64,000 bases of DNA from a candidate division WOR-3 bacterium (GTDB lineage Bacteria > Hydrothermota > Tepidihabitantia > Tepidihabitantales > Tepidihabitantaceae). Position 1 is the first letter of the stretch. Each line of letters begins with the position of its first letter. Below the pieces are notes generated by a model. That model did no database searches and was not told the DNA's origin. It saw only the letters and a list, made by a program, of their open reading frames with translations. A program made the position numbers and the translations under genes. The stretch lies in the NCBI GenBank assembly GCA_965649295.1, contig CBFGKH010000001.1, forward strand, positions 288,001 through 352,000, read 5' to 3'. Of this stretch, positions 24,647 through 60,761 are shown piece after piece.

Positions 24647-24649
24647 CTC

Positions 24650-26044: not shown

Positions 26045-26060
26045 CAGGTCCTACCCTTGC

Positions 26061-29541: not shown

Positions 29542-29658
29542 CAGCCTCGTGACCTTGTAACGGCTCTCATCTTTGTATCTTGGTGCTCGTGACAGTTCTT
29601 CCTTTGCCCGAACCCACCAGCGCCCTTCTTCGTGCCCTCGTCTCCTTCGTGATTTGTC

Positions 29659-30306
29659 CTAAGTCTCGCTGACCAGACGTTCGACTTCCCGCACTGCCGC
29701 GTAGGCATCGGCTGCATAGCCATCAGCACCAATCCGGCGAGCAAACTCAGCCGTGACTGGCGCACCGCCGACAATCACCCGCACCTGCTGCCGCAACCCG
29801 GCTTTGTCCAGCAGTTCGATGACCTTCCCCATCTTTGGCATCGTCGTTGTCATCAGCGACGACATCCCCAGCACCGCTGCACCGTACTCGCTAGCTGCCT
29901 TCACAAAACCATCGAGAAACACGTTGCGACCAAGGTCAATGACCTCAAACCCGGCTGCCTGCACCATCACCTTGACGATATTCTTGCCAATATCGTGGAT
30001 ATCGCCCTGCACCACACCCAGAATTACCCGGCCCCGGCTCTGAGGAAGCGCGCCGATATGCTCTTTCAGGATGTCGAACCCGGCGTACATCGCCCGCGAT
30101 GCAAGCAATACTTCCGGCACAAAACACTCCTTCGCCGCGTAGCGCTCACCCATTCGGCGCATTCCAACAGCAAGGCCATTAGTGATGGCATCCTGCGGCG
30201 ATAGCCCCAGTTGAATTACCCGGTGGGCAAGTTCGACCACTCGCTCGGGCTTCATCGCCACCACTGCCTCGGCCAGTTGCCCAAATAGGGGATGATTCTC
30301 ACTCAT
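29659..30306 (-). CDS. Corrinoid (B12-binding) protein, MtaC/MttC-like
   Basis: FVPEVL, GDIHDIGKNIV (DxHxxG), SSLMTTT, GGAP. Confidence 0.93.
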   Translation of the reverse strand: MSENHPLFGQLAEAVVAMKPERVVELAHRVIQLGLSPQDAITNGLAVGMRRMGERYAAKECFVPEVLLASRAMYAGFDILKEHIGALPQSRGRVILGVVQGDIHDIGKNIVKVMVQAAGFEVIDLGRNVFLDGFVKAASEYGAAVLGMSSLMTTTMPKMGKVIELLDKAGLRQQVRVIVGGAPVTAEFARRIGADGYAADAYAAVREVERLVSET

Positions 30307-36231: not shown

Positions 36232-37083
36232 CTACTTCTTCTCCGGTGCAATGACCCAAAAGTCTAGTCCAGCAGTGAACGGTGCAATCTGACCACCGCG
36301 CGAGATGAACTGCAGCGGCAGCCCGGCCTTGGGCCGAATCGAGAGCATCGGCACCGGTTTCACTACCAGCCCCAGTTGGGCAACGTGCCGGTCCTGCTCG
36401 GTCTTCTCCTTGGCAGTGCCATTGATCTCGGTCCGGGCCTGCATCGTGCCGACGAGCGATGCCCAGACCTGGAACTTCTTCGTAAAGTCGTAATCGAACT
36501 TGGCCACGTATTCAAACATGTTGCCGACCCTGGTCGTATCATTCGTCTTGCCGTTAAGCCAGTAGGCTGCGCGCAGGTGCGCCACTGCCTTGCCCAGCGG
36601 CTTGGTTGTAGCAATCAGCCCGACTGCGCCTGCCCACTTGCCATCGCCGATTTTCGGCTGCGCGTTCTTATCCGCGGTTGGAAATGCCACTGCAGCTGCC
36701 GCCGTCACCTTGACCGGCGCTGCCCAGCCTCTCACCACGGCATAGCGGGTCTGCAGTTCGACGTCGCCGACGCCGAACGAACTCTTCGAACCCTGGCTCC
36801 TGCTGGCCAGCGGTGCCTGCACCAGCAACTCCAGGTTCTTCACTGGAGCGAAACCGGCGATAACGGTTGCGCTGATGGTCGTGGTCTTGAGCGTGTCAGC
36901 CAGCGCGTCCCACTTGCTGTCGGTCCAGTTGTACTTGCTTCCTGTCCGAGCGTAGCCAAAGTCAATCTCGCCGAGAAACTGCATCGGCTTCAGTGTACCT
37001 GCGCCCCGCCCGATCAGCGGCGTGGCTACTGCGCTGCTAGCGACCGCAGCAACTAGTGCTGCGACTACTGCGACTCTCTTCAT
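36232..37083 (-). CDS. Outer-membrane beta-barrel channel (MetA-pathway/SphA-like transporter family)
   Basis: Signal peptide, 'GVGDV.L..RY', 'FPT' and amphipathic strands; GGAGG RBS. Confidence 0.65.
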   Translation of the reverse strand: MKRVAVVAALVAAVASSAVATPLIGRGAGTLKPMQFLGEIDFGYARTGSKYNWTDSKWDALADTLKTTTISATVIAGFAPVKNLELLVQAPLASRSQGSKSSFGVGDVELQTRYAVVRGWAAPVKVTAAAAVAFPTADKNAQPKIGDGKWAGAVGLIATTKPLGKAVAHLRAAYWLNGKTNDTTRVGNMFEYVAKFDYDFTKKFQVWASLVGTMQARTEINGTAKEKTEQDRHVAQLGLVVKPVPMLSIRPKAGLPLQFISRGGQIAPFTAGLDFWVIAPEKK

Positions 37084-37885
37084 TCGAACCTCCTTTTGTC
37101 TTGTCGGTCCCGTCGTTGCCTTCGACAATTACGGACAAGGCCTGCTCCAGCAGGTCCCGAACCTGCAGCAGCACGCCATCGAACTCTGGGCCGAACCGCG
37201 GCCGCGGCCGACCCATCCTGACTGTTACCTCACCGATAATGCGACCCGGCCGGTCAGCCATCACCACGACCCGGTCCCCCAAATAGACCGCCTCATCAAC
37301 GTTGTGCGTGACAAAAACCACCGTCTTACCGGTCTGCTGCCAAATCGCCAGCAGTTCATCTTGAAGCCGGTGACGGGTTCGCTCATCGAGCGCTCCGAAC
37401 GGCTCGTCAGCCAGCAGCACTGCTGGGTCAGTGGCCAGCGCCCGAGCAATGGCTGCGCGTTGCTGCATGCCGCCCGAAAGCTCGTGCGGTCGGCTGCGCT
37501 CGAACCCAGCCAGTCCCACCATCCGTATCAGCTCCTGTGCCTTGGCCCGCCGCTCGACCCGACCGACACCGGCCAGCTCCAGACCGAAAGCAACATTGTC
37601 AAGCACGCTCCGCCACGGCAGCAGGGCATATTGCTGAAAAACGAGTCCAACCTCGCGCCGCGGCCCGAGGACCTCCTGGCCGGCGACTCGAACCGCACCG
37701 CTATCCGGCCGCTCCAGCCCAGCCGCGACCCGCAGCAGCGTCGTCTTGCCACAGCCAGTCGGCCCGACCACCGTGACAAACGAACCCGGTGCGACCCTGA
37801 GCGTAACCCGGTCAAGAGCGACCACACTGGCACCAGCGCCGATGTAGCGGCGGGTTACACCTTCGAACTCCAGCCCGGCTGCCAT
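37037..37885 (-). CDS. ABC transporter ATP-binding protein (SsuB/TauB type)
   Basis: GPTGCGKTT, LSGGMQQR, DEPFGALD, VTH. Confidence 0.93.
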   Translation of the reverse strand: MAAGLEFEGVTRRYIGAGASVVALDRVTLRVAPGSFVTVVGPTGCGKTTLLRVAAGLERPDSGAVRVAGQEVLGPRREVGLVFQQYALLPWRSVLDNVAFGLELAGVGRVERRAKAQELIRMVGLAGFERSRPHELSGGMQQRAAIARALATDPAVLLADEPFGALDERTRHRLQDELLAIWQQTGKTVVFVTHNVDEAVYLGDRVVVMADRPGRIIGEVTVRMGRPRPRFGPEFDGVLLQVRDLLEQALSVIVEGNDGTDKTKGGSNEESRSSRSTSCCGR

Positions 37886-38727
37886 CACCGTGCCTTTGCC
37901 TGCCAGCTCGTAAACGGCCGGCCGACGGTGCTGACGACCCACGACAGCAGAGCACCGACCAGGCCGATGAGGATCATCCCGGTCACGAGCACGTCCATCT
38001 CGGCAAGCTGGTACGCGTAGATCATCAGATAGCCGATTCCCGAGCTTGAACCGGGCAACATCTCCGCTGCCACAATCACCATCCAAGCCGTACCCAGCCC
38101 AATCCGCAGACCAGTGAAGATAGCCGGCAGTGCTGCCGGCAGCACGACCTTGCGAAAGACCTGGCCGCGAGTTGCCCCGAGCACCAATGCCGACTCCACA
38201 TACGAGTCCCGAACACCAAGCACGCCATCAACTGTATTCAGAAGAATCGGAAAGAACGCCCCATAGAAAAGGATGAAGAGCATTCCCACCTGCACCGTGT
38301 CGAAGATGGTGTGGGAATAGCGCACACCGAACAGATTGACAATCGTGTAGGTCTTGAAGATGGCCATCGCAAACGGTATCCAGGCAATTGGACAGAGCGG
38401 CCGAAACATCTCGACAAACGGGCCGACCAGCCGTCGCACCAGCCCAATCCGGCCCATCAACAACCCGAGCGGTACTGCCGCGACCATTGCCAGAACAAAA
38501 CCCATGAGCACCCGCAATCCCGAGACCGCAATGTTGTGCAGCAGTGAACCGGTTTCGAGCACATTCGCACCCGGCCGTAGCAACCGCCGAACCACTGCTT
38601 CGACCCGTGGCACCAGCCAAGGGTTGTTCATCCGCACCGCGGCTAACTCCCATACGGCAAGAAAGAGCAGCGGCAGGGCCGCACCAAGCAGTAACCGACC
38701 AAGCCGAGTGCGAAACAGTTGGGACAC
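37885..38727 (-). CDS. ABC transporter permease (SsuC/TauC type)
   Basis: RPLCPIAWIP, EAA-like loop, WMVIVAAEM. Confidence 0.92.
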   Translation of the reverse strand: MSQLFRTRLGRLLLGAALPLLFLAVWELAAVRMNNPWLVPRVEAVVRRLLRPGANVLETGSLLHNIAVSGLRVLMGFVLAMVAAVPLGLLMGRIGLVRRLVGPFVEMFRPLCPIAWIPFAMAIFKTYTIVNLFGVRYSHTIFDTVQVGMLFILFYGAFFPILLNTVDGVLGVRDSYVESALVLGATRGQVFRKVVLPAALPAIFTGLRIGLGTAWMVIVAAEMLPGSSSGIGYLMIYAYQLAEMDVLVTGMILIGLVGALLSWVVSTVGRPFTSWQAKAR

Positions 38728-47217: not shown

Positions 47218-48459
47218 TCACTGCAGAAAACGATACCCGCACCGCGTACAAAACCGGGCATCCGGCTCACGGACGGCGCCACACTGCGGACAGACCGGCC
47301 GCCGAGTCGCAACCACCAGTGCAACTTCAGCACCGCGCTTCAGTCGGGTTCCGGCTGGCGGATAGGTTCCTGCGACCATGCCCGGCGCATAGCCACCGCT
47401 GAACGTCTCCTCAACCCGACCAGGCTTCAGCCCGGCCGCATTCAAACTGGCCTTCGCCTGATCCAGAGCTACGCCCACCAGTGGCGGCACTTGTGCCATA
47501 CCAGTGCTAATACTCAGCTGGACCCGACCACCCCGCCGCAACCGCTGCTCGGCTGGTGGACTCTGGGCCACAACCACCCCTGCTTCCTCCGGGCCATCCG
47601 CCTCGACAAGAACCACCTCCAGGCCAAGCGAATCGAGCAGCGCCTGCGCCGCTGCCTGACCAAGCCCAACCAGATTCGGCACTGGTTTGCCCCCAAGCAT
47701 CGGCCGCAGTATCACCACCCCGCCGGCGACCAACCCAATCACGAGCAACAGCACCACAACCGGCACCACCCGTGGTCGGGGCCGGCTAACCGGCACCGGT
47801 GCCGGCTCAAAAACCGCTGTTGGCGGCCGCTCCAACTCCTCTTCAACCCCTGACTCGGCCCGAGGCCCAATTACCTGCTGCAGACGATGACGCTTGGCCA
47901 TCGCTTCCAGCGCCTGCTTGAACTCGCGAGCGGTCTGGAACCGACCCTGCGGATTCTTTGTCAGGGCTCGCAGAATGATTCGCTCCAGCTCAACCGAAAT
48001 CTCGGGTCGTATCGAACGCGGCGGTGGCGGTGGCTGGGTGGCATGAGCTTGGAGCAGCTCGTGCTTGAGCTGGCTGTCAAACGGGACCTTACCGGTTGCC
48101 GCCTCATACAAGCAGACACCCAACGAATAGGTATCACTGCGGCCATCAACTGTCCGGCCCTGGCCCCGCTCCGGCGACATATACCGAACAGCTCCCAGTC
48201 CGGTCCCGCCGTAATCAACGAGCTTCCAACTCTTACCCTCACGGACAATCTTCTTCGGACTGATGTTGCGATGAATCATCGCCTGACCGTGCGCCTGTTC
48301 CAAGTCATCGAGGACCTCGATGAAGATGCGAAGCAGTTCAGGCTCAGGCAGTGGCCCACGTTCGGCCAAGAGCTTTTCCAGTGTCATAGCGGTGGCAGCA
48401 CTGCCCCCCGGCCCAGGCTGGTCAGTCGGCGGCGTTGGTAGCGAATCTGTCATTGTCAC
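47218..48459 (-). CDS. Ser/Thr kinase-like (probable pseudokinase)-TM-PASTA-zinc ribbon protein
   Basis: HRN, DYG, YMSPE, D.YSLG; TM segment; two PASTA domains; CPQCG...FCTRCG. Confidence 0.85.
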   Translation of the reverse strand: MTMTDSLPTPPTDQPGPGGSAATAMTLEKLLAERGPLPEPELLRIFIEVLDDLEQAHGQAMIHRNISPKKIVREGKSWKLVDYGGTGLGAVRYMSPERGQGRTVDGRSDTYSLGVCLYEAATGKVPFDSQLKHELLQAHATQPPPPPRSIRPEISVELERIILRALTKNPQGRFQTAREFKQALEAMAKRHRLQQVIGPRAESGVEEELERPPTAVFEPAPVPVSRPRPRVVPVVVLLLVIGLVAGGVVILRPMLGGKPVPNLVGLGQAAAQALLDSLGLEVVLVEADGPEEAGVVVAQSPPAEQRLRRGGRVQLSISTGMAQVPPLVGVALDQAKASLNAAGLKPGRVEETFSGGYAPGMVAGTYPPAGTRLKRGAEVALVVATRRPVCPQCGAVREPDARFCTRCGYRFLQ

Positions 48460-48712: not shown

Positions 48713-50332
48713 TCAGCGAACGTCGCCCGCCTGGCTGGCACTTCGAGACAAAAGGTCTCTGGCTACTGGAGCATAGGCTGAACCTGGGTAATCAATCACG
48801 AGCTGTTGCAAGGCAGCACGATAGCGGCTATCGTCCGCGAGCACCGTCCGATAGACCTGCGCCTGCTCAAACCTAGCCCGCGGTGCCAGCGGACTGGCCG
48901 GTGCGGAACGAATAAAGTCTTCATAGACGAGCAGCGCCTCACGGGCCCGTCCCAGCCGTCCAAGACAGGCAGCAGCGACAAAGTGCGCTTGCTCCGCCAC
49001 CTGACCGTTACCCTTCATCAACGACTGGGCCTGGGTTAGGGCCTGATCGTATCGGCCACGGGCAAAATCAAGCATAACCCGCCCCAGCTCTGCCGCTCTA
49101 TCACCACTACCAGCCACCAGCGCCAGTTCCAGCCCGTCATTCACAAGCAGACTCGCCGGGAAACGGGACGCCAACTCGGCAACCGCTGAACGCACCGAAT
49201 CTAGCTTGCCCTCGTAGAGAAACGTCTGGGCGACCAATAGTAACAACCGGTCACTTGGTGCTGCTGCCTTACGCGCCTCGCTCCGAGCAGCAGCCGGTCT
49301 GCCCTGAGCCACGAGACTGGTAGCAAGACCGAATCGGGCCGGTTCACTCGCCGACTCCAGCCGCAGCGCCTGGCCAAACGCCTGTTCTGCCGCCTCGTAG
49401 TTACCCGCCTCCAGTTCCAGCTCGCCCAACTCGACGAACGCCGCGGCTGTATTCGACCGCCCCAGCTCAACCCTTGCTTCAGCCACTCTGCCCATACGCC
49501 GCAGCACCCGTCCGGCATCAACTGTCCGACCGTTTGCCTGATATGCTGCCAGCGCGGCCTGCAGGTAACCTGCTGCTTCACACTCCCGAGCGAAGCGGTC
49601 AAGTGTTGGCCGGTCAACAACCTCTTGCACTGCCCGCACCGCCTCCGCCTGCTGATTGGCAGCCAGCAACACAGTAGCTGCTGCCAGTCCTTTTATGTCG
49701 GGCGCGGTCAGACCGCCAACCTCAGTCAGCAACTGCCGATATCCGGTCCGCGTCGCATAGGCGCGCAGTTTCTGACGATAGCTGTCAAAGGCCTTGGGAT
49801 TGCGGTTTAGCAACATTACAATCTCGCGCACCGCTGCTATCAACTGCCCCTGCTTCTCGTATAGCTCGATCAACGCGTCGGCATGAGCATAAGGGTCTCC
49901 TGAACGCTCGCGAATCTGCCGATACACCGAAGTCGCCTCTGCCCACTGCTCCGTACGAACCAGTAGGGCAGCCAGCGCCGGCAACTCTTCTGGCCACTTG
50001 CGGCCAATCCGCCGCGCCTCCTGCAATCCCTCCGCTGTCCGGCCCTGACCAAGCAATCCCTCAGCCAGCGCCAAGGCAAACCTCGCCTCCTCGGGCTGCG
50101 CCGCCACCAGTCGCCGACTGACAGCTACCAGCGAATCATAGCGACCCAAGGCCCGACTGACCCGCAAAAGCCCCTGCAACGCACCGACGTCGTTACTGTT
50201 CTTGCTCAACTGCCGACAGTACTCGACAAGGGCAGGCTCAAGCTGACCAGCCTGTTCGAGCACCAGCCCGGTCTGGGCCAATGCCGCCCCGACGAGCACC
50301 AGCCCGACTAACCAGCACCGCACCACAAACAC
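48713..50332 (-). CDS. Exported tetratricopeptide-repeat protein
   Basis: Signal peptide, Ala/Leu helical TPR repeats, terminal YPGS motif. Confidence 0.8.
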   Translation of the reverse strand: MFVVRCWLVGLVLVGAALAQTGLVLEQAGQLEPALVEYCRQLSKNSNDVGALQGLLRVSRALGRYDSLVAVSRRLVAAQPEEARFALALAEGLLGQGRTAEGLQEARRIGRKWPEELPALAALLVRTEQWAEATSVYRQIRERSGDPYAHADALIELYEKQGQLIAAVREIVMLLNRNPKAFDSYRQKLRAYATRTGYRQLLTEVGGLTAPDIKGLAAATVLLAANQQAEAVRAVQEVVDRPTLDRFARECEAAGYLQAALAAYQANGRTVDAGRVLRRMGRVAEARVELGRSNTAAAFVELGELELEAGNYEAAEQAFGQALRLESASEPARFGLATSLVAQGRPAAARSEARKAAAPSDRLLLLVAQTFLYEGKLDSVRSAVAELASRFPASLLVNDGLELALVAGSGDRAAELGRVMLDFARGRYDQALTQAQSLMKGNGQVAEQAHFVAAACLGRLGRAREALLVYEDFIRSAPASPLAPRARFEQAQVYRTVLADDSRYRAALQQLVIDYPGSAYAPVARDLLSRSASQAGDVR

Positions 50333-53300
50333 CTACTCATTCAGCAGCCTATCAAAGTAGGCCCGAATCATCTCCTCATACTCCGCTGGATAACCCTGTT
50401 TCAGGGCCCGCATCAGTTCCTCGCGGAGCAACCGGTTCCGCTCGCCGGCATCAACCGGCAGTCGCGGCCGCTCCCGAATCTCAAACGGCCGACCGGTCTC
50501 ACTCTCCCGCTCCTCTTTGAATCCCTGCTGCCGGATGCTCCGCTGGGCATCAAGCAGATGAGAAAGGATGCTCTCCTGTCGCTGGACCAGTTCCCGTGTC
50601 ACGTTCAGTTCAGCCAGGTCGCGTTCTACCTGCCGCATCTCGTCCAACACCCCGTCAAGAGCCGAAGTGAGGCCAGGCCGATCGCCACCCATCGATTGCA
50701 GCATCTGCTCCAGTTGCTGCCGAATCGCGCTCTGTTTGGCCAGAATCCGGGCCAGCGCCTGCAGCTGGGCCTCGGATAGCCCGCCGGGCAGCGGAATCGG
50801 CATCCCGCCCATCTCGGAGTTGATTCCCATCTGGCCCGATGCCATCTGCGACAACTGTTCGAGCAGGTCCTCCATACCGCCGGACAGGCCACCGCCCTGC
50901 TCGGCATTGGCCGCTGCTTCGAGCAAGCTCTGGGCGATTCGATTCAGCCCTTGTCTCGCTCCGGCCATTAGCTGACCGGCCGAGCCGCCACGATTCTCAA
51001 CCAGTGCCTGTGCTGCCTGCTGCATCGTGTTCATCACCCGTGCCAACTCTGCCCCAGCCTGCGGTGGAATGCTCAGGCTCTGGCCGGCAAGTGACGCAAG
51101 ACTTTCGGCAACAATCCGGGTTGCGTCGTGCATACCCATCTGGGTTGGGGCCAGTTCGCTGAGGTCGGGTTGGGCGGCGAGCGAAGTTTCGAGCGCCTCT
51201 TGCTGGCGTGAGAGCATGAGGATATCACCCGCAGCGGCGGTCAGTTTGCGAGCCACGTCTTGCGAGCGCTTCTGCTTCAGCCGGTCCGACAGGGCCTGTA
51301 GTCCCTGCCCCAGTTCGGCCAGCTCCTCGGCCAGTTCCTGACTCGGCCCCTGCGCCGGCTTGGTCTGACCCTGTTGCAACTGTTCGGCTATGCGCCCGGC
51401 CCGGGCTGAGAGCTGCCGTCCTTCGGCTGCTTCAGCAAGTTGGCCCAAGGCCTGGGCCAGCTCGCTGTCCGAGAGCGAATCAGCCAGCCGCTTCATCTGT
51501 CCGAGTAGGCTATCCAGTCCGGCTTTGATGTCCTGTTGCCGGGCAGCTGCTGCCTCATTCGGCTCCCGGCCGAGCTTTGATGTCAATTCTTCCTGCCGCT
51601 CGGCTAGCTCAGCTGCCTTGCGGGCGAGCTCGGCCAAACGCTGCTCCTCGGCAATCCGGCGCAGCAGTTCCAAGGCCCGCTCGATCCCGGCCCGTAGCTT
51701 TTCCTGGTCGAGCTGGAACCGTTCGAGTGCCTGCCGGATATCTGGTGCCTGCTGTTCGAGCTGCTCCCGTAGCCGGGCCAGCGACTGCTGAAGTTCCCGC
51801 GGCAGCATCTGCGAGAGCAGCTCCTGCAACTGTCCCAGCCGATTCATCGTCTCCCGGTCAAAGCTCAGTCCCTGGCTCAGTTCTTCTTTGAGCTGCTGGA
51901 TCTCGGCCTGCAAATCGGCAATCTGGTCTAGCAGCTCCTGCTGCCCGTCGAGGGTTTTAGCCAGGGCCTGTTTTTCGGGCCAGCCGAGTTCACGATTGCG
52001 CTTCAGTTCGTCGCTAATCCGGGCGAGGTCGGCGCTGAGTTGCTCTTGTTCGGTCTGCATCGGGCCAAGTTCCTGCGTTGTCCGCTCAGTCTGGCGCACT
52101 GCTGCCGAGTGTATCTCGGCGAGCGTGGGGAAGCGGACTGCGTATGTCTCGCTTTGGCCTAATTTTGGCCCGCGGACAGCGTCGTTGTCCGCGACAGTGA
52201 CATAGTAGTGCATCACCTCGCCCGGCAATAGACCGACATCGGCAAGGTCCCAGACATAGAAAGTGGTGTCCTCGCGCCGTCCGCCAAGGTTCCTAATCCG
52301 AATCCGCTGAGCAAACGACTCTGCTCGGGGCAGGCCTGGTGGTTCGTCCTCTCCTCGTCCGAATTCCTCCGGGGTCTCTTTGGCAAAGTGGAGCACCAGC
52401 TCCCCGAGTCCAAAGTCATCAATCGCATTGATTCCCAGCGGAATCTGCATCGAGGCCGGCAGGTCAACATCCCGGCCCGGCAAGAACAGCCGCACAAACG
52501 GCGGCTCATCGCCCAGAACCCTGACCCGGAGTCCAACTGCTGGTCGGGCCGGCCCGTCACTGGTCCCGGCCAGCTCAATCCCGCCGCTCGCGTCGCTCTT
52601 GGCGACAAACCGACCGCGAAAGCGGCTGGGCACCGCCGCGTCAATCTCAATGCCGAGCGTCTCGCTTCCCAAGACCAACTGTGCCTGACCGATTGCCCGG
52701 TCTGCCTCACCCTCGAACTCGACGACTGTTCCGCGCAGCACGCTGATATCCGGATTCGACGAACGCACCGGCGCAAGACCGGTGTAGGGGGGGTAGTTGT
52801 AACTGAACACTAGCCGCGTAATGCCGAGCGGCTCCAGCACCCGCACCCGGTGTTCGGCTGATACTGCCGACAATGCCCGGAACCGATACCAAAACCCTTT
52901 CTCTGCCGGTATGCGCACTGCACAAGAGTCCCCGACGAGCCGCACCCGCCGCCGCTGCAGTCTCTGCCGGCCAGCACCGTCACTTTTGGTCTCGAGCCAG
53001 ACCCCACGCAGCGGTAGCTGTTCTCTGGCCGCGCTGCCCTCTTGCAGGACCAGCCGGCAGCGCAGTACTGCTGTTCCATTTGGCATCACCGTGGTATCGC
53101 CCGGCGCAACGATGAGCGACACCGGCAACCGACTTGGCGCAAAACCGTTGAGGAAACCGAGTTGCATCCGCTCGGTCAGGAACAGACCGAGCAGGCCGAC
53201 AATAGCGACTACTCCAACCAGCCCGGCCCCGGCCCAGAACAGCCGGCCACGGTGGTCCAGCCGGCCCAGGGGTAGCGGTGAGAGCGCCTGCTCGGCCTGG

Positions 53301-53653
53301 GCCACTGCCGCATCGAGCAACTCGACCGAGTAGCCCTCCCTGCTCTTCTCATCGTACCGGCAGAGTTCGAGCGCTGCCCGCAGCCTGCCCCGCACAGCCG
53401 GAAAGGTCTCTTCCACTTCGGTCACGACCGGTGCGAGCCGGTCCTGAGCAAGCCAGCGCCACGCCACGACCGCCACCAACACGACGGCTCCAAGCAGCAG
53501 CCAGCCGCTCCAGAAAAACAAAGAGACCAGCGCGCCAATGCCCACAAGGAGCGCAAGCAGCACTACTAGCAGGGCAGCGAGGTCAAACCCGAGCCGCGCT
53601 CGATACAACCGGCCAAGCCGGGTGCTGATTAGTCGGCCGCGCTGGGTATTCAC
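50333..53653 (-). CDS. DUF4175-like membrane-anchored coiled-coil protein
   Basis: N-terminal TMs, PPYTG, DDFGL, Y.V...DND, Gln-rich coiled coil, terminal Y...I.AYF. Confidence 0.8.
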   Translation of the reverse strand: MNTQRGRLISTRLGRLYRARLGFDLAALLVVLLALLVGIGALVSLFFWSGWLLLGAVVLVAVVAWRWLAQDRLAPVVTEVEETFPAVRGRLRAALELCRYDEKSREGYSVELLDAAVAQAEQALSPLPLGRLDHRGRLFWAGAGLVGVVAIVGLLGLFLTERMQLGFLNGFAPSRLPVSLIVAPGDTTVMPNGTAVLRCRLVLQEGSAAREQLPLRGVWLETKSDGAGRQRLQRRRVRLVGDSCAVRIPAEKGFWYRFRALSAVSAEHRVRVLEPLGITRLVFSYNYPPYTGLAPVRSSNPDISVLRGTVVEFEGEADRAIGQAQLVLGSETLGIEIDAAVPSRFRGRFVAKSDASGGIELAGTSDGPARPAVGLRVRVLGDEPPFVRLFLPGRDVDLPASMQIPLGINAIDDFGLGELVLHFAKETPEEFGRGEDEPPGLPRAESFAQRIRIRNLGGRREDTTFYVWDLADVGLLPGEVMHYYVTVADNDAVRGPKLGQSETYAVRFPTLAEIHSAAVRQTERTTQELGPMQTEQEQLSADLARISDELKRNRELGWPEKQALAKTLDGQQELLDQIADLQAEIQQLKEELSQGLSFDRETMNRLGQLQELLSQMLPRELQQSLARLREQLEQQAPDIRQALERFQLDQEKLRAGIERALELLRRIAEEQRLAELARKAAELAERQEELTSKLGREPNEAAAARQQDIKAGLDSLLGQMKRLADSLSDSELAQALGQLAEAAEGRQLSARAGRIAEQLQQGQTKPAQGPSQELAEELAELGQGLQALSDRLKQKRSQDVARKLTAAAGDILMLSRQQEALETSLAAQPDLSELAPTQMGMHDATRIVAESLASLAGQSLSIPPQAGAELARVMNTMQQAAQALVENRGGSAGQLMAGARQGLNRIAQSLLEAAANAEQGGGLSGGMEDLLEQLSQMASGQMGINSEMGGMPIPLPGGLSEAQLQALARILAKQSAIRQQLEQMLQSMGGDRPGLTSALDGVLDEMRQVERDLAELNVTRELVQRQESILSHLLDAQRSIRQQGFKEERESETGRPFEIRERPRLPVDAGERNRLLREELMRALKQGYPAEYEEMIRAYFDRLLNE

Positions 53654-53767: not shown

Positions 53768-54970
53768 CTAGTCGGCTTCGAATCGCAGCACCAGCTCTTC
53801 GAGCTGCTCGCCAAGCCAACGGGCCTGGACGCGCCGGTTGTAGCGATCGCGGTTGCCGCCAACGAATCGGCCGGGGTTGGCCTGTAGCTCGGCCAGCACC
53901 GTCCGCAACCGGTTCGGGTCGCCGTCGCAGCCCAGCCCGGCTTGGGCGTTGGTCACGATCGCCAGCGCCTCGGCCGCATCACCCCAGACGATAATCGGCC
54001 GGTTCGCGCCAAGGTACTCATACAGCTTGATGCCCACCGGCTGGTTGGGCTTGTTGATGTAGAGCAGGCAATCAGCCCCTTTCATGATGGCACAGGCCCG
54101 GCGGTGCGGCACCGTGCCGAGCAACTCCACCTGCTGGTTTCTGGCCAGTTCCTGCCGGAGCGGTTCGCCAACCCCGCCCACAAGATACAGTCTCGCTTCT
54201 GGTACCGCGCCCAGCGCCTGCACAAACGAACGCACCAGTCCCTCGTTCTGCCAGAGGTTACCGACATGGACGACGCTGTAGCCGGCAAGGCGCTCGGCCT
54301 CGGCCTCAAACTCGGTCGGGTCGAATCCGTTGTCCAGCACCCTGACACCGCTACCCACCTGCCGCGCTGTCCCTTCGTTCACCGCCAGCGTCAGGTCAGC
54401 GTGTTCGACAATGTAGCGCCGCAGTCGGCGCAGCGCTGCCCGCTGGTGTCGCGGCGGCTCGGCAAATCCGGTCGGCCAGGGGTCGCGAAAGTCGCAAACG
54501 AGCGGCACCCGCGCGTGGGCCTTCAGCCTGACACCGAGGAGCAGGGCCGTGAACGGCGGCGAAGTGGCAAAAATCGCTGCCGGCTTCTCGGCGTCAATGA
54601 TATGCCGGCCGACTGCTGACCCGAATGGAAACCAGCCAATCTTTGAGTCGGGAAAGAGCAAGTAGTTGAGCAACCGCGGCCCTAGTCCCCCGACTTTCTT
54701 TAGCGCCGGCTGAAGCCGCTTGGCCCGCGCCCGCAGTAGCTGCAGCAGTCGGTTCGGGTCAACTGTCTCGGTGCGGTAGAGCCTCGCCTCTTTCAGGTCG
54801 GCGAGCAGCTCCGGGTCATACGAGTAGTAGGCGACAGGCTTTACCGTGAGGATGAGCGGCCGCCAGCCTGCTTCGGGCAAGAACTTGCAGAGCTTTGTCA
54901 CCCGCATCACGCCCGAAAGCCCAAGCGGCGGAGTGTAGTAGGCTATCACCAGCAGTCGTCGGAGTGTCAT
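53768..54970 (-). CDS. Glycosyltransferase (GT-B, family 4-like)
   Basis: YY.PP...GV.R, TSPP, DFRDPW, NGFD, KLYEYL. Confidence 0.87.
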   Translation of the reverse strand: MTLRRLLVIAYYTPPLGLSGVMRVTKLCKFLPEAGWRPLILTVKPVAYYSYDPELLADLKEARLYRTETVDPNRLLQLLRARAKRLQPALKKVGGLGPRLLNYLLFPDSKIGWFPFGSAVGRHIIDAEKPAAIFATSPPFTALLLGVRLKAHARVPLVCDFRDPWPTGFAEPPRHQRAALRRLRRYIVEHADLTLAVNEGTARQVGSGVRVLDNGFDPTEFEAEAERLAGYSVVHVGNLWQNEGLVRSFVQALGAVPEARLYLVGGVGEPLRQELARNQQVELLGTVPHRRACAIMKGADCLLYINKPNQPVGIKLYEYLGANRPIIVWGDAAEALAIVTNAQAGLGCDGDPNRLRTVLAELQANPGRFVGGNRDRYNRRVQARWLGEQLEELVLRFEAD

Positions 54971-57090
54971 CGCGTTACCGGTGACAGCCTAGCGCCGCCA
55001 TCCATCTTCGCAAGCCGCTTCCCACTAGCCCCCCCACTAGCCGGCCCACAAATCCTCCTCATCGCCTCCGTCACCTCCTCTGGCGACAGCTCGACTAGCT
55101 CGATTTCCGAAAGGAACCGAAGCAACCCGCTAATGTCGAGCGACAGCAGGTGGTCTTCAACCTGCAACTCATCGGGCAGGAAACGAAAGAACGCGCCCGA
55201 GCCAAGACTGTCTTCGAGTCGGGCCAGCGCCCCGCGGACGACCTCGCGGATGCTCCCAAGGTCCGGTGCCAAAAACCGTTGCAGCTTGGGAGCAGAACCA
55301 GCCCCGCTAAGCAGTAACAGCTTGCCGTGCATATCCGCCACCTCCCTACCCCGAAGAGCCAGCGCCTCAGCGAGGATATAGCCGTAGGTCTGGCCCAAAA
55401 GATGGACCAGCACTGTCTCATTACGGTCGCGGAAGTAGGGAAACTGCTGTTCAGCCAGGTTCGGAAAGAGCCGCTGTTTCAGCACCGTGGCCAGCCGATA
55501 GTAGTAGCCGCCGGTGCCGGTGCCTTCAAAAATCTGAGTGTTGGTTGTGACTGCTGCCAGCGGCCGCACCAGCAGCCGCCGCCGTTTCTCATCGCGCTCG
55601 ACCAGCTCCCAGCTTCGGCCTGCCAGCACGAAGTGGCGATAGACGAAAAAGACCGTGCCGATGTGCTGGTTGCTCGTCACATCGCGGACCTCATACTCGC
55701 CAAACGACTTGTCCTGAATGTTGGAATGAATCTTCCCTGACTCCACCTGCCGCTCGACCGCGGTGCCGGTGTGATAGATGCCCTCTTGGCTTGAGACGAG
55801 CGCGCCGGTCTCGACCAGATGCCGAAACGCCCGGTCAAACTGCCGCTCGTCGGTCACCAGCGGTACCAGCGCGCGCCGACACGACTCCCGCGTCATCCCG
55901 ACCCGGCGGCGCTGAAACGCGTAGGAGAGGATTTGCTGGGGCAGCACCGCCAGCGAGGGCGTGTAGCGCTTCTCGTAGAGCCGACCGGTTCGAGCGCACT
56001 CGAAGAACGTCTCAAAGAGCATCCGCTCCCAGGCGTTGGCATAGAGGGCAATCACCGGCAGCGGCAGCCGGCTGCGCCGATTGCCCCGACCCAGCCGTTG
56101 CAGCAGCGAGGAAACACTGAACGGCGGCCGCACCAGCACCACCGCGTCAATGTCGCCGATGTCAATGCCCAGTTCGAGCGTCGAAGTGCAGCAGAGCAGG
56201 CCGGTTCGCTCCCGGTTCATCGCCTGTTCGACTGTCTCCCGCACAGCCTTGTTCAACGACCCGTGATGCACCCAGCAGCGGCCCGCGAACGGCGGTCGGT
56301 CCAGAAGCTTCACCGCCTTCTCCGCTGCCGAGCGGGCGTTGAAAAAACAAAGCACCTTCCGGCAACCTTTGCGCCTTAGAGTGGCGAGCAGCTCACCCTC
56401 CCAGTTATCGTCCAGCGCCGCATACTCGACACTAATCTCCCGCTGCGCCGGTACCGCCACAACGGTTGGGTTCGAAAAGTAACGTTGGCCAATCTCAAGG
56501 TCGTCAATCGTTGCCGACAACGCATGGAAGGTGAGGTTCGGGTTCACCAGCCGCAGCCGCTGAAGCAGCACCCGCAACTGGTCCCCCCGCGGCGTGTTGT
56601 CAAGAAGATGCAGCTCATCTAGAATCACCGTCGCCAGTTGCCGAAATATGGCAGTGTGCCGACAGAGCAAAGAGTCGAACGACTCCGGTGTCGTCAGAAG
56701 CAGAAACGGCAACCGCCTCTCGTCAATGTCAGGATGATCACCAGTCTTGCGGCTGACCGTAAGTCCCAAATATTCCATCGGCTCGACCAGACGGCGATAA
56801 AGGTCGTTTACCAGCGCCCGCGTCGGACTGACATAGAGCACAGCCAGACCCTGTTGGCCACTCCTCTCCGCTGTAGCGCCAGCTCCGCCAAGGAGCCGCT
56901 CTACAACCGGGGCCACCACCCCATCGGTTTTGCCCGAAGCGGCCGGTGAGATGACCACCAGATTCTCGCCTGCCAGTATCCTCGGAATCGTCTGGACCTG
57001 AATGTCGGTGAGCTGGCCGAAGCGTGAAAAAAACGGCACCCACGTGCGGCGCAACGCCTGACGAATCGAGGCTACTGCTGCCGATGTCAT
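54967..57090 (-). CDS. Lhr-like DEAD/DEAH-box helicase (SngC/BrxHI-like)
   Basis: Q motif LTDIQ, ASGKT, PTRAL, TTPES, DELH, SAT, HHGSL, TSTLELGIDIG, QRLGR. Confidence 0.9.
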   Translation of the reverse strand: MTSAAVASIRQALRRTWVPFFSRFGQLTDIQVQTIPRILAGENLVVISPAASGKTDGVVAPVVERLLGGAGATAERSGQQGLAVLYVSPTRALVNDLYRRLVEPMEYLGLTVSRKTGDHPDIDERRLPFLLLTTPESFDSLLCRHTAIFRQLATVILDELHLLDNTPRGDQLRVLLQRLRLVNPNLTFHALSATIDDLEIGQRYFSNPTVVAVPAQREISVEYAALDDNWEGELLATLRRKGCRKVLCFFNARSAAEKAVKLLDRPPFAGRCWVHHGSLNKAVRETVEQAMNRERTGLLCCTSTLELGIDIGDIDAVVLVRPPFSVSSLLQRLGRGNRRSRLPLPVIALYANAWERMLFETFFECARTGRLYEKRYTPSLAVLPQQILSYAFQRRRVGMTRESCRRALVPLVTDERQFDRAFRHLVETGALVSSQEGIYHTGTAVERQVESGKIHSNIQDKSFGEYEVRDVTSNQHIGTVFFVYRHFVLAGRSWELVERDEKRRRLLVRPLAAVTTNTQIFEGTGTGGYYYRLATVLKQRLFPNLAEQQFPYFRDRNETVLVHLLGQTYGYILAEALALRGREVADMHGKLLLLSGAGSAPKLQRFLAPDLGSIREVVRGALARLEDSLGSGAFFRFLPDELQVEDHLLSLDISGLLRFLSEIELVELSPEEVTEAMRRICGPASGGASGKRLAKMDGGARLSPVTR

Positions 57091-57109
57091 CGTTGGGTGT
57101 GACTAGCCA

Positions 57110-58468
57110 TCAGGGGGTCTGGGACTGACGGCTGCTGATTTGAGCCCAGCGCCGCGCGTCCAGTGCCTCAACCGAGTACTTGATGAAAGCACGGATACCC
57201 TCGATGTTTCGCTTCGCGGCCTCACGGAGCAACTGTTTCTGTTCAAGCTCAGTAATCTCAAACTGGGGATAGGCCTGACGGTATAGCATGACCATTGTCG
57301 AGAAAGCATCCATTAGCGCCTTGTCCGACAACTGTTCCAGCTCAATCCGGTGCCGGATGCGGTTGGCCAGCTTGATGTAGGCATAGTCGTATGGGCTAGG
57401 CGTGGTCGCAAAAACCAAGAGGATGTGGGGGTCGCGGTAGATGTAGGGCACCGGCTTGACCCGATTGTGAATCATCCGGTCGTTCACACGCCGCAGCTCC
57501 GGGTCGTTCTGGGCGGTGCGCACGAGTCCGTCCATGAAGTTCACACTCTTGGTGAGATAGATAATATCCCAGAGGTGCGTGACCGTCTCGGCCTCGTCAA
57601 TCAAGAGCACAAGCCCCTTCATGCCGAGCTGCCAGGCAATCCACGACAGGCCTGACAGGATGTTGCAATACAGGTCAGCCGCAGTCGAGAAATCGTAGAG
57701 CGCCGGAATCCGCTGCCCGCCCCGTACCCGATACGGACTCCGAAGCTCGGTTGCGTATTCCTTGGTGCTCTCCCCCTCAATCCATTGCCAGAAAACCTCA
57801 GAGCCGAGCTGGCCGCGGTCAAGCCGCCGCAGCTTCTCAAGTACCGGCCCCCAGAAGACATGGTCACGCAAGTCGAGCTCACCTGCCGCAAGCAACAGGT
57901 CGCGAAAGCCGTGTTCCCGGCTGTCCTTGATGTAGCGCAGGTTGTGGACGATTTCACGATAGACCCGCTTGGGCCGATGCGGGGCCACCTCCTGCGGGTC
58001 AAACTGCACCAGACTCGTCGCCATACCGGCGCCAAGGGCCCGGTGGTGGATGTACTCCAGAATGTGAGTCTTGCCCGTGCCGTACTCGCCCTCGACCATA
58101 AAGACATCGCCCTTGCCCTTAGCCAGCGCCGCCAGAGCCGCATCTACTATCCCGACCTGTTTCTCACGACCAAAAGTGAACTTCTCGACGTCCTGATGCG
58201 GCACAATCCCAAGCCGAAATGCCTCAACCATCCGCCGCGCCTGCACCTTATCAATCGTGCCGAGGGCCGGGCTGGCATCGCCGATGTCAATGTCAATACC
58301 GGTCAGCAGCCGTACCCGCTGCGTAGGCAGCCAGAGCCGCAGACCGCTGGTGAACTGAACGAGCAGTTCGGTGCCGTGCCAACGCGAGTCGAGTACCTCG
58401 CCTTCCCCAAAAACTGGGTGGCTTACGAGCCGCCGCCTTACCCCCTTCATCGGTTCAACGCCAGCCAT
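57110..58468 (-). CDS. DUF2791/BrxD-like P-loop ATPase with an N-terminal Tudor-like domain
   Basis: VSHPVFGEGEV; EAFRLGIVP; GEYGTGKTH; GLVLLIDEAE. Confidence 0.8.
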   Translation of the reverse strand: MAGVEPMKGVRRRLVSHPVFGEGEVLDSRWHGTELLVQFTSGLRLWLPTQRVRLLTGIDIDIGDASPALGTIDKVQARRMVEAFRLGIVPHQDVEKFTFGREKQVGIVDAALAALAKGKGDVFMVEGEYGTGKTHILEYIHHRALGAGMATSLVQFDPQEVAPHRPKRVYREIVHNLRYIKDSREHGFRDLLLAAGELDLRDHVFWGPVLEKLRRLDRGQLGSEVFWQWIEGESTKEYATELRSPYRVRGGQRIPALYDFSTAADLYCNILSGLSWIAWQLGMKGLVLLIDEAETVTHLWDIIYLTKSVNFMDGLVRTAQNDPELRRVNDRMIHNRVKPVPYIYRDPHILLVFATTPSPYDYAYIKLANRIRHRIELEQLSDKALMDAFSTMVMLYRQAYPQFEITELEQKQLLREAAKRNIEGIRAFIKYSVEALDARRWAQISSRQSQTP

Positions 58469-58533
58469 CTGCTCCCAAAGTCCCTAGCCCAACACCAAAC
58501 CAGAAAAACAATTGGTGGCTCGTCCGTCCGGCG

Positions 58534-59805
58534 CTAGAACTCCTGGCTTTCGACCTCGGCCTTGCCGGCGGCCTCAAGCCTCTGCGTCGTGACGCGCAGC
58601 AGCTTCTCGGCATCCTTCCGTTCGAACTGTAGCGAAGGATTCGCCCGCAATTGGTGCAGGGCTTCGACCATCGCCACCACAAACAGGCGCCGGTACCCGA
58701 CGTCGAATGCAAAAGCCGATACTGCCAGTTCGGCCAACGTCCTCGTGACCCCGTCGCGCCGCGCCTCGGGCAGCTTCAGCTCATAGGCAGTCTCGAACAG
58801 CCGCACGAGCCTGTCCCCCAGCCGGTGCAGAAACTCGACAGGCTCGATTCCCAGGTCTTCGAGGTTGATGCGCACGCCGACCGGGTTCGTCTGGCTGAAT
58901 GGACTGCGCAGCCGCTGTTTGAGCGCTTCATAGACCCCGCCCGAGCCTTCGAGCAACAGATTCTCGTCCGGCACGGCGTAGAAGAACATCGCCCCCGGCA
59001 GTCGCGAATTGCCGCATTCATCTACTATCTGCCGCAGGTTGTCCAGCGCCCGCCGCTTGTCTCGCGACGACGATATTGACATTCCCCGCTCGGCCTCGTC
59101 AAAGAGAAAGACGAGACCGGAGTAGCCGATAGAGTGAACCCATTGGATTAGCGAGCGCAGCATCCGAAACGCAGTCGCCTTGTCTATCCGCTCGGAGATA
59201 CGGTACTGGGCCCGCACGTCCTTGGCAACCTCCTCACCCTCGAGCCACTGACAGAGCTCGCTGAACCCTTCGCTATCCTCAGCAAGTGACGCCCCAAACG
59301 CACCCCGCACCGCATTACTGAAGCTGGTGCTCTCGGTCACCGGCAGGGTCTCGAGGTAACTGCGCAGTGAATCCACCCGGTCCTGCTGCCGTCGCTGCTC
59401 TGCGACCCAACGTTTGATTACGTTTTCGATACCTTTGTCGGCGAAGCGGGCCGGTGTGTCAGTCGGGCCAGGACTCGTCAGATTGGCCGCAATGCCCTTA
59501 TAGACGAGTTCGAGCTTGTCGAACGGACACTCGGTTGGATTCAGACTGACATAGGCGACACAGTAGTTGTGCCGGAACGCTAGGTCCCGGACAGCAAAAA
59601 GAAAGTGAGTCTTGCCGCCACCGTAGTTGCCGGTCACAAGCTTGAAACTCGAAAGATTGTACTTAAGAATCCCGTTTAGGTATTCTTCTTCAATCACTTG
59701 TAAGTAGCGCTCCAGTCCCACCGTGAACTGGTCAATCCCAAACTCCGGCGGCGTGCCGGTTGAGCCGAGCTTCATCAGAATCGCCTGCGCCAGTTGCCTG
59801 TCCAT
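58534..59805 (-). CDS. DUF2791/BrxD-like P-loop ATPase
   Basis: G.PP, FKLVTGNYGGGKTH, GYSGLVFLFDEAE, NLRQIVD, YEALKQRL. Confidence 0.85.
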   Translation of the reverse strand: MDRQLAQAILMKLGSTGTPPEFGIDQFTVGLERYLQVIEEEYLNGILKYNLSSFKLVTGNYGGGKTHFLFAVRDLAFRHNYCVAYVSLNPTECPFDKLELVYKGIAANLTSPGPTDTPARFADKGIENVIKRWVAEQRRQQDRVDSLRSYLETLPVTESTSFSNAVRGAFGASLAEDSEGFSELCQWLEGEEVAKDVRAQYRISERIDKATAFRMLRSLIQWVHSIGYSGLVFLFDEAERGMSISSSRDKRRALDNLRQIVDECGNSRLPGAMFFYAVPDENLLLEGSGGVYEALKQRLRSPFSQTNPVGVRINLEDLGIEPVEFLHRLGDRLVRLFETAYELKLPEARRDGVTRTLAELAVSAFAFDVGYRRLFVVAMVEALHQLRANPSLQFERKDAEKLLRVTTQRLEAAGKAEVESQEF

Positions 59806-59808
59806 CAA

Positions 59809-60657
59809 CTACTCCACGACGGTGAATGAGACATAAGAATAGTGCGTTCCGTCGCCGGCATCGTTGTCCGGCACCCAGAGCGCCTTTGCCTTTTCGGTTG
59901 TCGCGTCGAAATTGGCCACATGCAACTTCAGTCGCCGCCCGCCGGTGACAAACTGCCCAGCCTGCTTCAGCCGATAGAGGTCATAGCTGAAACGAATCCG
60001 GGGATAGTCAACAAACTTCTCCTGCGTCGGATTGAGCCGAAAGCTCGCCGGCTGCAGCAGCAGCACGAGCTCCGACAAAAGGTCAACGAGAAAGACCCGA
60101 CTGCCGACACTCTGGCCATTGAGAAGGCAGTAGCGCTCGTAGGCAGTCGCAAGCTGCCCGAGCAATCGCTCCGGCGGAATCGCCCGCGCGGTCAGGCGCT
60201 CCCCAAAGCTGCGCACGGTCTTGGCCAAACTCAGCGGCTCAAGCCTGATTCCCGACTTTAGCTTCTCGATCTCCGGCCCCCAAAAGACGGTCGCGGCGCC
60301 GGCCGCGAAATCGGCCTTGATTGTGAACAGGCCCACCCGCAACAAGGGCAACTGGCCGCGCACCGTCATCCCTGAGCCTTCCAGCGCCGCCAGCAACTGC
60401 CGGCCAAACTGGAACCGGAACTCGGCCTTGGCTCCTTCAATTTCGGCCCGCTCCCCGGCAATCCACTCCTCGAGGTTCGCCCGTACCTCAGCCGGCGGCA
60501 GGGTCGCAGCCTGCTTGGTAATCTCGGCCAAAAGCTGCTCTCGTTTGTGGACGTTGTTGACTGGAGCCGACAGCAGGGACCGGTAGTCGCCGAGCCTCTT
60601 GGCCAGCCCGAGCGCGGTAGCACTCAGGCTACGCAGGGAGAGAATCAGCCCTTCCAT
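59809..60657 (-). CDS. Hypothetical protein leading the ATPase-ATPase-helicase operon
   Basis: 282-aa ORF abutting the next gene; TTGACA-N18-TATACT immediately upstream. Confidence 0.75.
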   Translation of the reverse strand: MEGLILSLRSLSATALGLAKRLGDYRSLLSAPVNNVHKREQLLAEITKQAATLPPAEVRANLEEWIAGERAEIEGAKAEFRFQFGRQLLAALEGSGMTVRGQLPLLRVGLFTIKADFAAGAATVFWGPEIEKLKSGIRLEPLSLAKTVRSFGERLTARAIPPERLLGQLATAYERYCLLNGQSVGSRVFLVDLLSELVLLLQPASFRLNPTQEKFVDYPRIRFSYDLYRLKQAGQFVTGGRRLKLHVANFDATTEKAKALWVPDNDAGDGTHYSYVSFTVVE

Positions 60658-60761
60658 AATCGCCAGTATAGCCCCTGGCCGCGGCAGCTGTCAATGCTGG
60701 TGATTGCGTCCGCCAGAGAAGTCGGCTTGACTCATCCCGCCAAGCTCCTAGACTCCTGCTC

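Follow-up and report, generated by a model that had tools for sequence, protein, structure and literature searches.

A so far unnamed cousin of Shango and BREX type 2 in a candidate division WOR-3 bacterium, with two ORC/Cdc6-type ATPases, an Lhr/Ski2-like helicase and a first gene of an unnamed family

Shango is a three-gene system in which a TerB-like protein, SngA, comes first, followed by a single ATPase of the BrxC_BrxD family (SngB) that lies directly upstream of an Lhr-like DExH helicase (SngC). The available text of its description lists a TerB-like protein, an ATPase and a DEAD/DEAH helicase, and reports a 10-100-fold phage protection (bioRxiv 10.1101/2022.11.11.516204). BREX type 2 has a core of PglZ, PglX, BrxC and PglW, and in addition an ORC/Cdc6-type AAA+ ATPase, BrxD, tightly linked to a Ski2/Lhr-like helicase, BrxHI. 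As far as the available text of PMC12839542 goes, BrxD has been proposed to be an ORC/Cdc6-type loader of BrxHI. This paper is about a related but different arrangement, found in 64,000 nucleotides (nt) of a candidate division WOR-3 bacterium (assembly GCA_965649295.1, contig CBFGKH010000001.1, positions 288,001 to 352,000). This whole stretch is called the window, and coordinates below are positions in it. The cassette consists of a protein of an unnamed family (gene 1), two ATPases (A and B) and a helicase. So far without a name, it is a cousin of the anti-phage modules of Shango and BREX-2 and a member of neither.

All cassette genes are on the minus strand. Gene 1 (59809-60657) encodes 282 amino acids (aa), ATPase A (58534-59808) 424 aa, ATPase B (57110-58468) 452 aa and the helicase (54967-57090) 707 aa. 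The spacing between them is 0, 65 and 19 nt, in that order. ATPase A starts with TTG, and there is an invariant ATG one codon further in. A sequence-only reading of this DNA had already named an unrecognised protein, two BrxD-like ATPases and an Lhr-like helicase, and the open reading frames (ORFs), Pfam and PADLOC bear out this gene content.

ATPase A matches the BrxC_BrxD profile (PF10923) over its full length, at 161.5 bits and an E-value of 4e-47. ATPase B is a divergent paralogue, which matches the first 122 of the 414 profile positions, corresponding to its N-terminal AAA+ part (88.7 bits, E 5e-25). The Pfam cut-off is 22.2 bits. In PADLOC-DB v2.0.0 (2023), from which all PADLOC models used here are taken, ATPase A matches BrxD at 3e-41 and SngB at 1e-19, and ATPase B matches the same models at 3e-27 and 3e-9. 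Walker A and Walker B motifs are intact in both proteins, as had been claimed earlier: GNYGGGKT and LVFLFDE in A, GEYGTGKT and LVLLIDE in B. ATPase A also has an invariant arginine-rich segment at residues 247-260, in which all 16 sequences compared keep R249, R252 and R253.

The helicase has a DEAD (2.6e-28) and a Helicase_C (1.2e-15) match in Pfam. In PADLOC its best model is SngC (1.2e-70), followed by BrxHI (2e-68). Motif I is present in a variant form (SPAASGKT), next to II (DELH), III (SAT) and VI (QRLGRGNR). The earlier claim that all helicase motifs are present thus stands for these four, the first as a variant. Lhr-type NCBIfam models match the helicase core only and stay below their cut-offs (DEXH_lig_assoc, E 1.3e-60). 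Beyond the core there is a weak match to a SelB wing, also below cut-off (E 0.0063). Judged by its DEAD plus Helicase_C core with a DExH motif II, the enzyme is an Lhr/Ski2-like DExH helicase of superfamily 2 (SF2), of the BrxHI or SngC kind.

The four genes belong together. One scan of species-representative genomes gave 17 related loci, probably from WOR-3, which were compared by tblastn with the window proteins. All 15 loci that reach the helicase have the order gene 1, A, B, helicase. The remaining two end earlier, and none of the 17 breaks the order. The synteny search that had been proposed on the basis of the sequence came out in favour of the unit, and two plasmids, discussed below, carry it as well. 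Identity to the window proteins is 64-80% for A, 59-79% for B, 59-71% for the helicase and 43-69% for gene 1. The locus is a genuine cassette of four genes that are inherited together.

Is this merely a divergent Shango or BREX type 2 locus? The best PADLOC models, BrxD and SngB for the ATPases and SngC and BrxHI for the helicase, are what one would see in that case. Like Shango, the cassette also has a first gene that is probably non-enzymatic. This gene is however not TerB-like: compared by hhalign with two TerB-N proteins of Shango-type loci, the gene-1 family scores probabilities of 1.4% and 0.1%. Where Shango has one ATPase, the cassette has two diverged ones. None of TerB, PglX, PglZ, BrxC and PglW has a match among the 50 window ORFs in Pfam or PADLOC, with the proviso that 40 of these ORFs were scanned at E<=1e-8 (Pfam) and E<=1e-5 (PADLOC), so that weak matches could escape. 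One kinase ORF of the window does match PglW (7e-9), which is a generic kinase match. The absence of TerB, PglX and PglZ had been noted from the sequence alone, as had the expectation that PADLOC would return no complete system, and none was obtained. The NCBIfam equivalog model for BrxD (NF033438) gives 140.7 and 92.8 bits for the two ATPases, far from its cut-off of 350.

Phylogenetic trees point the same way. The ATPase tree was built from the window, 10 of the 16 loci with a full A, 9 of the 15 with a full B, two plasmid cassettes, four BrxD and four SngB-type proteins. The helicase tree was made from the window together with 9 of 13 loci and with those members of the outside sets that have a helicase. 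Loci were thinned for brevity before any tree had been looked at. The trees are quick IQ-TREE searches whose only support values are those of the SH-like approximate likelihood ratio test (SH-aLRT), and the program warned about long branches. The A proteins of the WOR-3-like loci and of the plasmids fall into a single clade (SH-aLRT 90), and BrxD (99) and SngB (100) are each separate clades. Among the helicases, those of the cassettes likewise group together (99), and BrxHI (99) and SngC (84) stand apart. So even though SngC is the best PADLOC model of the helicase, the SngB and SngC clades exclude ATPase A and the cassette helicase, and the BrxD and BrxHI clades are separate as well. Because the cassette clades are distinct from BrxD/BrxHI and from SngB/SngC in both trees, the cassette is a third ATPase-helicase lineage, beside BrxD-BrxHI of BREX-2 and SngB-SngC of Shango. 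By the same trees, the duplication that gave A and B predates the spread of the cassette across phyla. Membership of Shango or BREX type 2 is with this largely refuted, and very little room is left for it. The new systems in the available text of PMC12839542 centre on DUF499, unlike the cassette. No published description of the four-gene arrangement was found, in a search that was thin on subscription journals and did not include supplements. The earlier idea of an undescribed Shango- or BREX-related system has held up on this point: no named system matches.

The fold of ATPase B leads to a second comparison. Its AlphaFold (AF2) model is of moderate confidence, with a predicted local distance difference test (pLDDT) value of 70.8. 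Foldseek finds 39 matches at E<=1e-3 in the PDB, at 8-13% identity and with ORC/Cdc6 chains on top. The best are 7jgr_A (4e-5) and 2qby_A (9e-5); a BrxC chain comes after the 39, at 1.2e-3. The 2qby entry is the Cdc6/Orc1 heterodimer of S. solfataricus on origin DNA. Both A and B are AAA+ ATPases of the ORC/Cdc6 type that have diverged deeply from each other; the structure match is that of the B model.

The two ATPases are predicted to bind each other. The A-B complex prediction scores 0.76 (runs of 0.75, 0.77 and 0.76), and the best of three controls scores 0.00. The runs share at least 85% of their contacts, with a partner pLDDT of at least 77. The predicted interface involves residues 249 and 252 of A, which belong to its arginine-rich segment, the Walker B glutamate of B (292) and a conserved helix of B (75-92). 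Such contacts would suit an AAA+-style interface in which an arginine finger of A reaches into the ATP site of B. A heteromeric ATPase ring had been suggested before as a possibility, and the predicted pairing agrees with a heteromer.

Like the Orc1/Cdc6 initiators, the cassette thus has two paralogues for which pairing is predicted, and a B fold that is closest to ORC/Cdc6. This raises the question if the pair and its helicase could serve replication initiation or restart, either of the chromosome or of an integrated element. A conserved, chromosomal cassette whose best structural matches are initiators would fit. The partner of Orc1/Cdc6 is however MCM, and that of the cassette is an SF2 helicase of the Lhr/Ski2 type, not a ring-shaped replicative helicase. 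No winged-helix origin-binding domain was shown in the cassette. There are also no element genes in the flanks, and neither repeats nor origin features came to light, although no search aimed at them was made. A plasmid copy in Desulfomonile does lie near a ParA gene, yet no replication link is seen there. A role in replication is therefore judged highly improbable.

Plasmids provide the contexts outside the WOR-3-like lineage. A tblastn search of ATPase A against 72,556 plasmids finds 636 records. The four-gene order is present in the strongest match and in one of the next two strongest, with protein lengths of about 279, 420-430, 397-398 and about 700 aa. The first genes of both are remote gene-1 homologues (hhalign probability 97%, E 1e-11 and 2e-11), even though tblastn of gene 1 itself finds no match in the same plasmids. 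On plasmid3 of Aulosira laxa NIES-50 (L018, 1-11554), the cassette comes directly after a BREX-2-like trio of a PglZ-like gene, a BrxD-like ATPase and a helicase. The PglZ-like gene encodes an alkaline-phosphatase-domain protein. Since the two are arranged in tandem, both kinds of module coexist on this plasmid, and they are not redundant copies. On pDESTI.01 of Desulfomonile tiedjei the cassette is near AbiEi/AbiEii and ParA genes. The gene-1 homologue of Desulfomonile occurs in only 2 plasmid records and in 19 protein clusters. The other plasmid matches of A that were inspected belong either to Shango-type loci, which combine a TerB-N protein with an ATPase and, where present, a helicase, or to BREX-2 loci. 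An Azospirillum plasmid was considered as a further cassette and rejected, because it has a BREX-2-like arrangement instead, judged by ORF layout only. Searching 50,697 phage records with gene 1 and ATPase A by tblastn gave no match.

Gene 1 is the least recognisable member of the cassette. Pfam (even at E<=10), NCBIfam, PADLOC (E<=0.01) and PHROGs are all without a match, in line with the earlier remark that the first gene is unrecognised, and the Atlas holds no named cluster for it. It is a real gene, given that it has homologues of constant length and a confident AlphaFold model. At E<=1e-3 it has 145 homologues, whose length stays at about 280 aa, and those that carry a name are labelled 'candidate division WOR-3 bacterium' or just 'bacterium'. 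The family is large: with clusters drawn at 50% identity, a profile made from 29 of these homologues finds 783 cluster representatives at E<=1e-3, 539 at E<=1e-10 and 198 at E<=1e-30. A profile from 38 diverse members recovers mostly the WOR-3 set again, plus one match named as Cloacimonetes. In the Atlas look-alike clusters (0.96-0.98), the commonest phyla are Acidobacteriota, Chloroflexota and Planctomycetota.

The AF2 model of gene 1 has a pLDDT of 91.3 and a predicted template modelling score (pTM) of 0.81. It consists of a three-helix N-terminal part followed by an alpha/beta part. Foldseek finds nothing at E<=1e-3 for this model in the PDB (best 0.19) or in BFVD. The sole invariant positions across the 38 diverse members are Q202, P210 and G270. 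As no catalytic-looking residue is among the invariant ones, gene 1 is probably non-catalytic. A nuclease was considered and dropped: the D, E and K positions that are invariant in the close set are not conserved across the 38 members. A BrxA- or BrxB-like protein was likewise rejected, as PADLOC and Pfam have no match and no such chain is among the 50 PDB matches listed. Of 15 distant relatives scanned, the four longer ones have a Rho_N/SAP-like N-terminal domain, which passes the Pfam cut-off in one of the four. This domain hints at a possible contact with nucleic acid.

Taken at face value, these parts suggest how the cassette could work. The A/B heteromer would be an ATP-gated DNA-binding switch. 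It would recruit the Lhr/Ski2-like helicase to target DNA or load it there, comparable to the licensing of a helicase by Orc1/Cdc6 proteins. The protein of 282 aa would serve as adaptor or sensor and stand where Shango has its TerB protein or BREX its core. Since no nuclease is encoded, the output would come from the helicase itself, by unwinding or stripping foreign or aberrant DNA, or from handing over to host nucleases. That the cassette is such an ATP-gated, helicase-loading surveillance module of defence descent is put here at an even chance. For the family as a whole, a module against mobile DNA is the most likely reading by analogy, because of its relatives and of the two plasmid contexts. 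In the WOR-3 lineage, the cassette would have become chromosomally fixed and vertically inherited, and B would have gained a UvrD-like Tudor domain.

Several observations weigh against this reading. Some of them concern the parts. No effector such as a nuclease was found in the cassette. The contexts seen outside the WOR-3-like lineage number only two. The B proteins of the WOR-3-like loci and of the plasmids sit on long branches and are not joined in the ATPase tree, which still leaves room for a single origin of the two B groups. The A-B score may also pass because of likeness to solved AAA+/ORC complexes. In the calibration, 116 solved complexes out of 157 and 2 mismatched pairs out of 215 reach its mark, counts that hold only roughly here because the prediction used alignments made for this work.

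The others concern the setting. With ORFs called greedily by longest ORF, so that some antisense artefacts are included, flanks are common within subclades and different between them, and the subclades in the A, B and helicase trees are the groups with common flanks. The 15 annotated recurrent flank families are housekeeping and transport genes. They include PilB, PilC, GyrB, an M42 peptidase, RND efflux with TetR, Gln/Glu-tRNA synthetase, GT2, epimerases, MscL and a MurA-like enzyme. Only 1 of 113 non-cassette flank ORFs has a PADLOC match at E<=1e-8 (mad3). There is no integrase or transposase among the Pfam matches of the window, no GC anomaly in it, and it holds metabolic genes. Compared over ten pairs of loci, the cassette proteins show about the same level of conservation as the neighbouring housekeeping proteins GyrB, GlnRS and AcrB. 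For L004 and L005 the identities are 91% for GyrB and 86% for both B and the helicase. For L006 and L008 they are 87% for GlnRS, 79% for A, 78% for AcrB, 77% for B, 76% for the helicase, 69% for gene 1 and 53% for a glycosyltransferase downstream. The pattern is one of vertical inheritance in place, unlike a mobile defence island. The sequence-only reading, which had seen the housekeeping-type setting correctly, had held that strict vertical conservation without a phage phenotype would speak against defence, and vertical conservation is found in this lineage.

The mad3 matches are those of an ABC-transporter ATPase of the window (37037-38086, minus strand, 2.6e-28) and of L005:1964-3367 (1.1e-24). 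The former looks like a generic ATPase match and not like a defence gene.

These observations suit a housekeeping role in genome maintenance. Under that explanation, A/B would load the helicase at damaged DNA, R-loops or transcription-replication conflicts, with B tethered to RNA polymerase. The unbroken order in 17 loci, the shared flank synteny within subclades, the near absence of defence genes in the flanks and the conservation close to that of GyrB, GlnRS and AcrB all speak for it. So does the helicase's match to the Lhr-type repair model DEXH_lig_assoc, even if below cut-off. On the other hand, all characterised relatives of the ATPase-helicase pair belong to defence systems, and the same cassette is on plasmids beside BREX-2-like genes and near AbiE genes. 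Genome maintenance is regarded as a real contender, held tentatively and well short of even.

The tether part of that explanation comes from the N-terminus of ATPase B. The first 45 residues or so are strongly conserved, with 19 invariant positions in 14 sequences. Residues 14-55 (58304-58429, minus strand) form a small beta-barrel of five strands in the model, with a pLDDT of 54-78 in this block. It weakly resembles the C-terminal Tudor domain of UvrD. When the N-terminal profile of B is aligned by hhalign with the last 70 aa of E. coli UvrD, the score is 20.1 (E 0.002), over 41 columns at 32% identity, with a probability of 13-16%. Other UvrD and YigB windows, 23 in number, score 6.4-13.1. 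None of 200 shuffles reaches the observed score (mean 9.6, standard deviation 2.2, maximum 16.6). There is no Pfam match for this domain, and its sole PDB sequence match is another Tudor domain (E 1.2). The signal seems to be real but weak.

The available texts of PMC5397179 and PMC8318588 describe the Tudor domain of UvrD/PcrA as binding RNA polymerase, which is why the likeness favours the maintenance role. Because it is weak, a tether of B to RNA polymerase is a lead and not a result. The arrangement also differs: in UvrD/PcrA the Tudor domain is at the C-terminus of a superfamily 1 helicase, and here the Tudor-like domain is at the N-terminus of an AAA+ ATPase. It was seen in the WOR-3-like copies of B only. 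The plasmid B proteins lack it and begin at the position of residue 72-74.

Where does this leave the WOR-3 copy? The WOR-3-like cassette is chromosomal, conserved in order and outside a defence hotspot, unlike Shango. The vertical pattern, housekeeping flanks, conservation and Tudor-like domain argue for a fixed chromosomal function. As it is fixed among housekeeping genes, the cassette may be there to protect the genome, and not as a mobile island of defence. This suggests constitutive surveillance in the WOR-3 lineage, perhaps at RNA polymerase. A stronger version holds that a Shango/BREX-2-like cassette was domesticated lineage-wide, tied to RNA polymerase by the Tudor-like domain, and now performs transcription-coupled genome surveillance. 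That version is doubtful. If true, it would be a new bacterial system of an ORC-like loader plus an SF2 helicase, with a fourth subunit of unprecedented fold.

The unit appears to have its own promoter, as had been noted before. A sigma-70-like site at 60665-60694 (minus strand) reads TTGACA-18-TATACT and matches the consensus at 11 of 12 positions. The scan that found it gives 5 promoter-like sites versus 1.1 expected from shuffles, and the evidence for this one is the consensus match alone. The -10 element is only 8 nt upstream of the ATG of gene 1, without space for a Shine-Dalgarno sequence, and because of this the mRNA of gene 1 may be nearly leaderless. No convincing terminator-like sites are within the unit (8 found versus 6.9 expected).

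Downstream of the helicase there is a fifth gene, a GT4 glycosyltransferase of 400 aa (53768-54970, minus strand). Its start overlaps the helicase stop by 4 nt (ATGA), and it is probably co-transcribed with the cassette. The earlier description of a tight four-gene unit thus stands as regards tightness, and not as regards a strict count of four. The GT4 gene is on the same strand in all 13 related loci that extend past the helicase, at 48-71% identity to the window protein. It diverges faster than the ATPases, and on neither plasmid does it follow the cassette. The gene is a neighbour specific to this lineage and lies outside the core cassette.

The junction of helicase and GT4 gene tolerates insertions, since two related loci have a small ORF there (L005:15665-16105 and L017:5396-5773). 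The ORF in L005 matches the 23S rRNA-intervening-sequence protein family PF05635 (1.3e-13), and BLAST clusters the one in L017 with it. In the window, the GT4 gene is followed directly by a DUF4175 protein of 1106 aa and a TPR protein of 539 aa (48713-53653, minus strand). Neither has a tblastn match in the 17 related loci.

Two further regions of the window were looked at. Kinases carry an HRD motif. At 47218-48459 (minus strand) there is a PASTA-domain 'kinase' that reads HRN at this position and looks like a pseudokinase. Its ORF starts at about position 84-92 of kinase profiles, no upstream frame encodes an N-lobe, and the protein ends in a zinc ribbon. At 22815-30306 (minus strand) there are two URO-D-like methyltransferases, a B12-binding protein, a RACo-like activase, two proteins of the HGD-D family (2-hydroxyglutaryl-CoA dehydratase D-component) and an ATPase of the BcrAD/BadFG family. 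By its gene content, this cluster looks like a corrinoid-dependent methyl-transfer system.

Few parts of BREX-2 and Shango are as poorly understood as the pair of a BrxD or SngB ATPase with a BrxHI or SngC helicase. The cassette is a minimal version of this pair, without methylase, phosphatase, kinase or TerB protein, and with two specialised ATPase paralogues. With it, the idea that an ORC-like loader serves an SF2 helicase can be put to a direct test. Gene 1 for its part defines a sizeable unannotated family, with its hundreds of cluster representatives, no Pfam model and no structural match. For the WOR-3 lineage, the cassette is a possible case of a defence-type module that has turned into a fixed, housekeeping-like trait.

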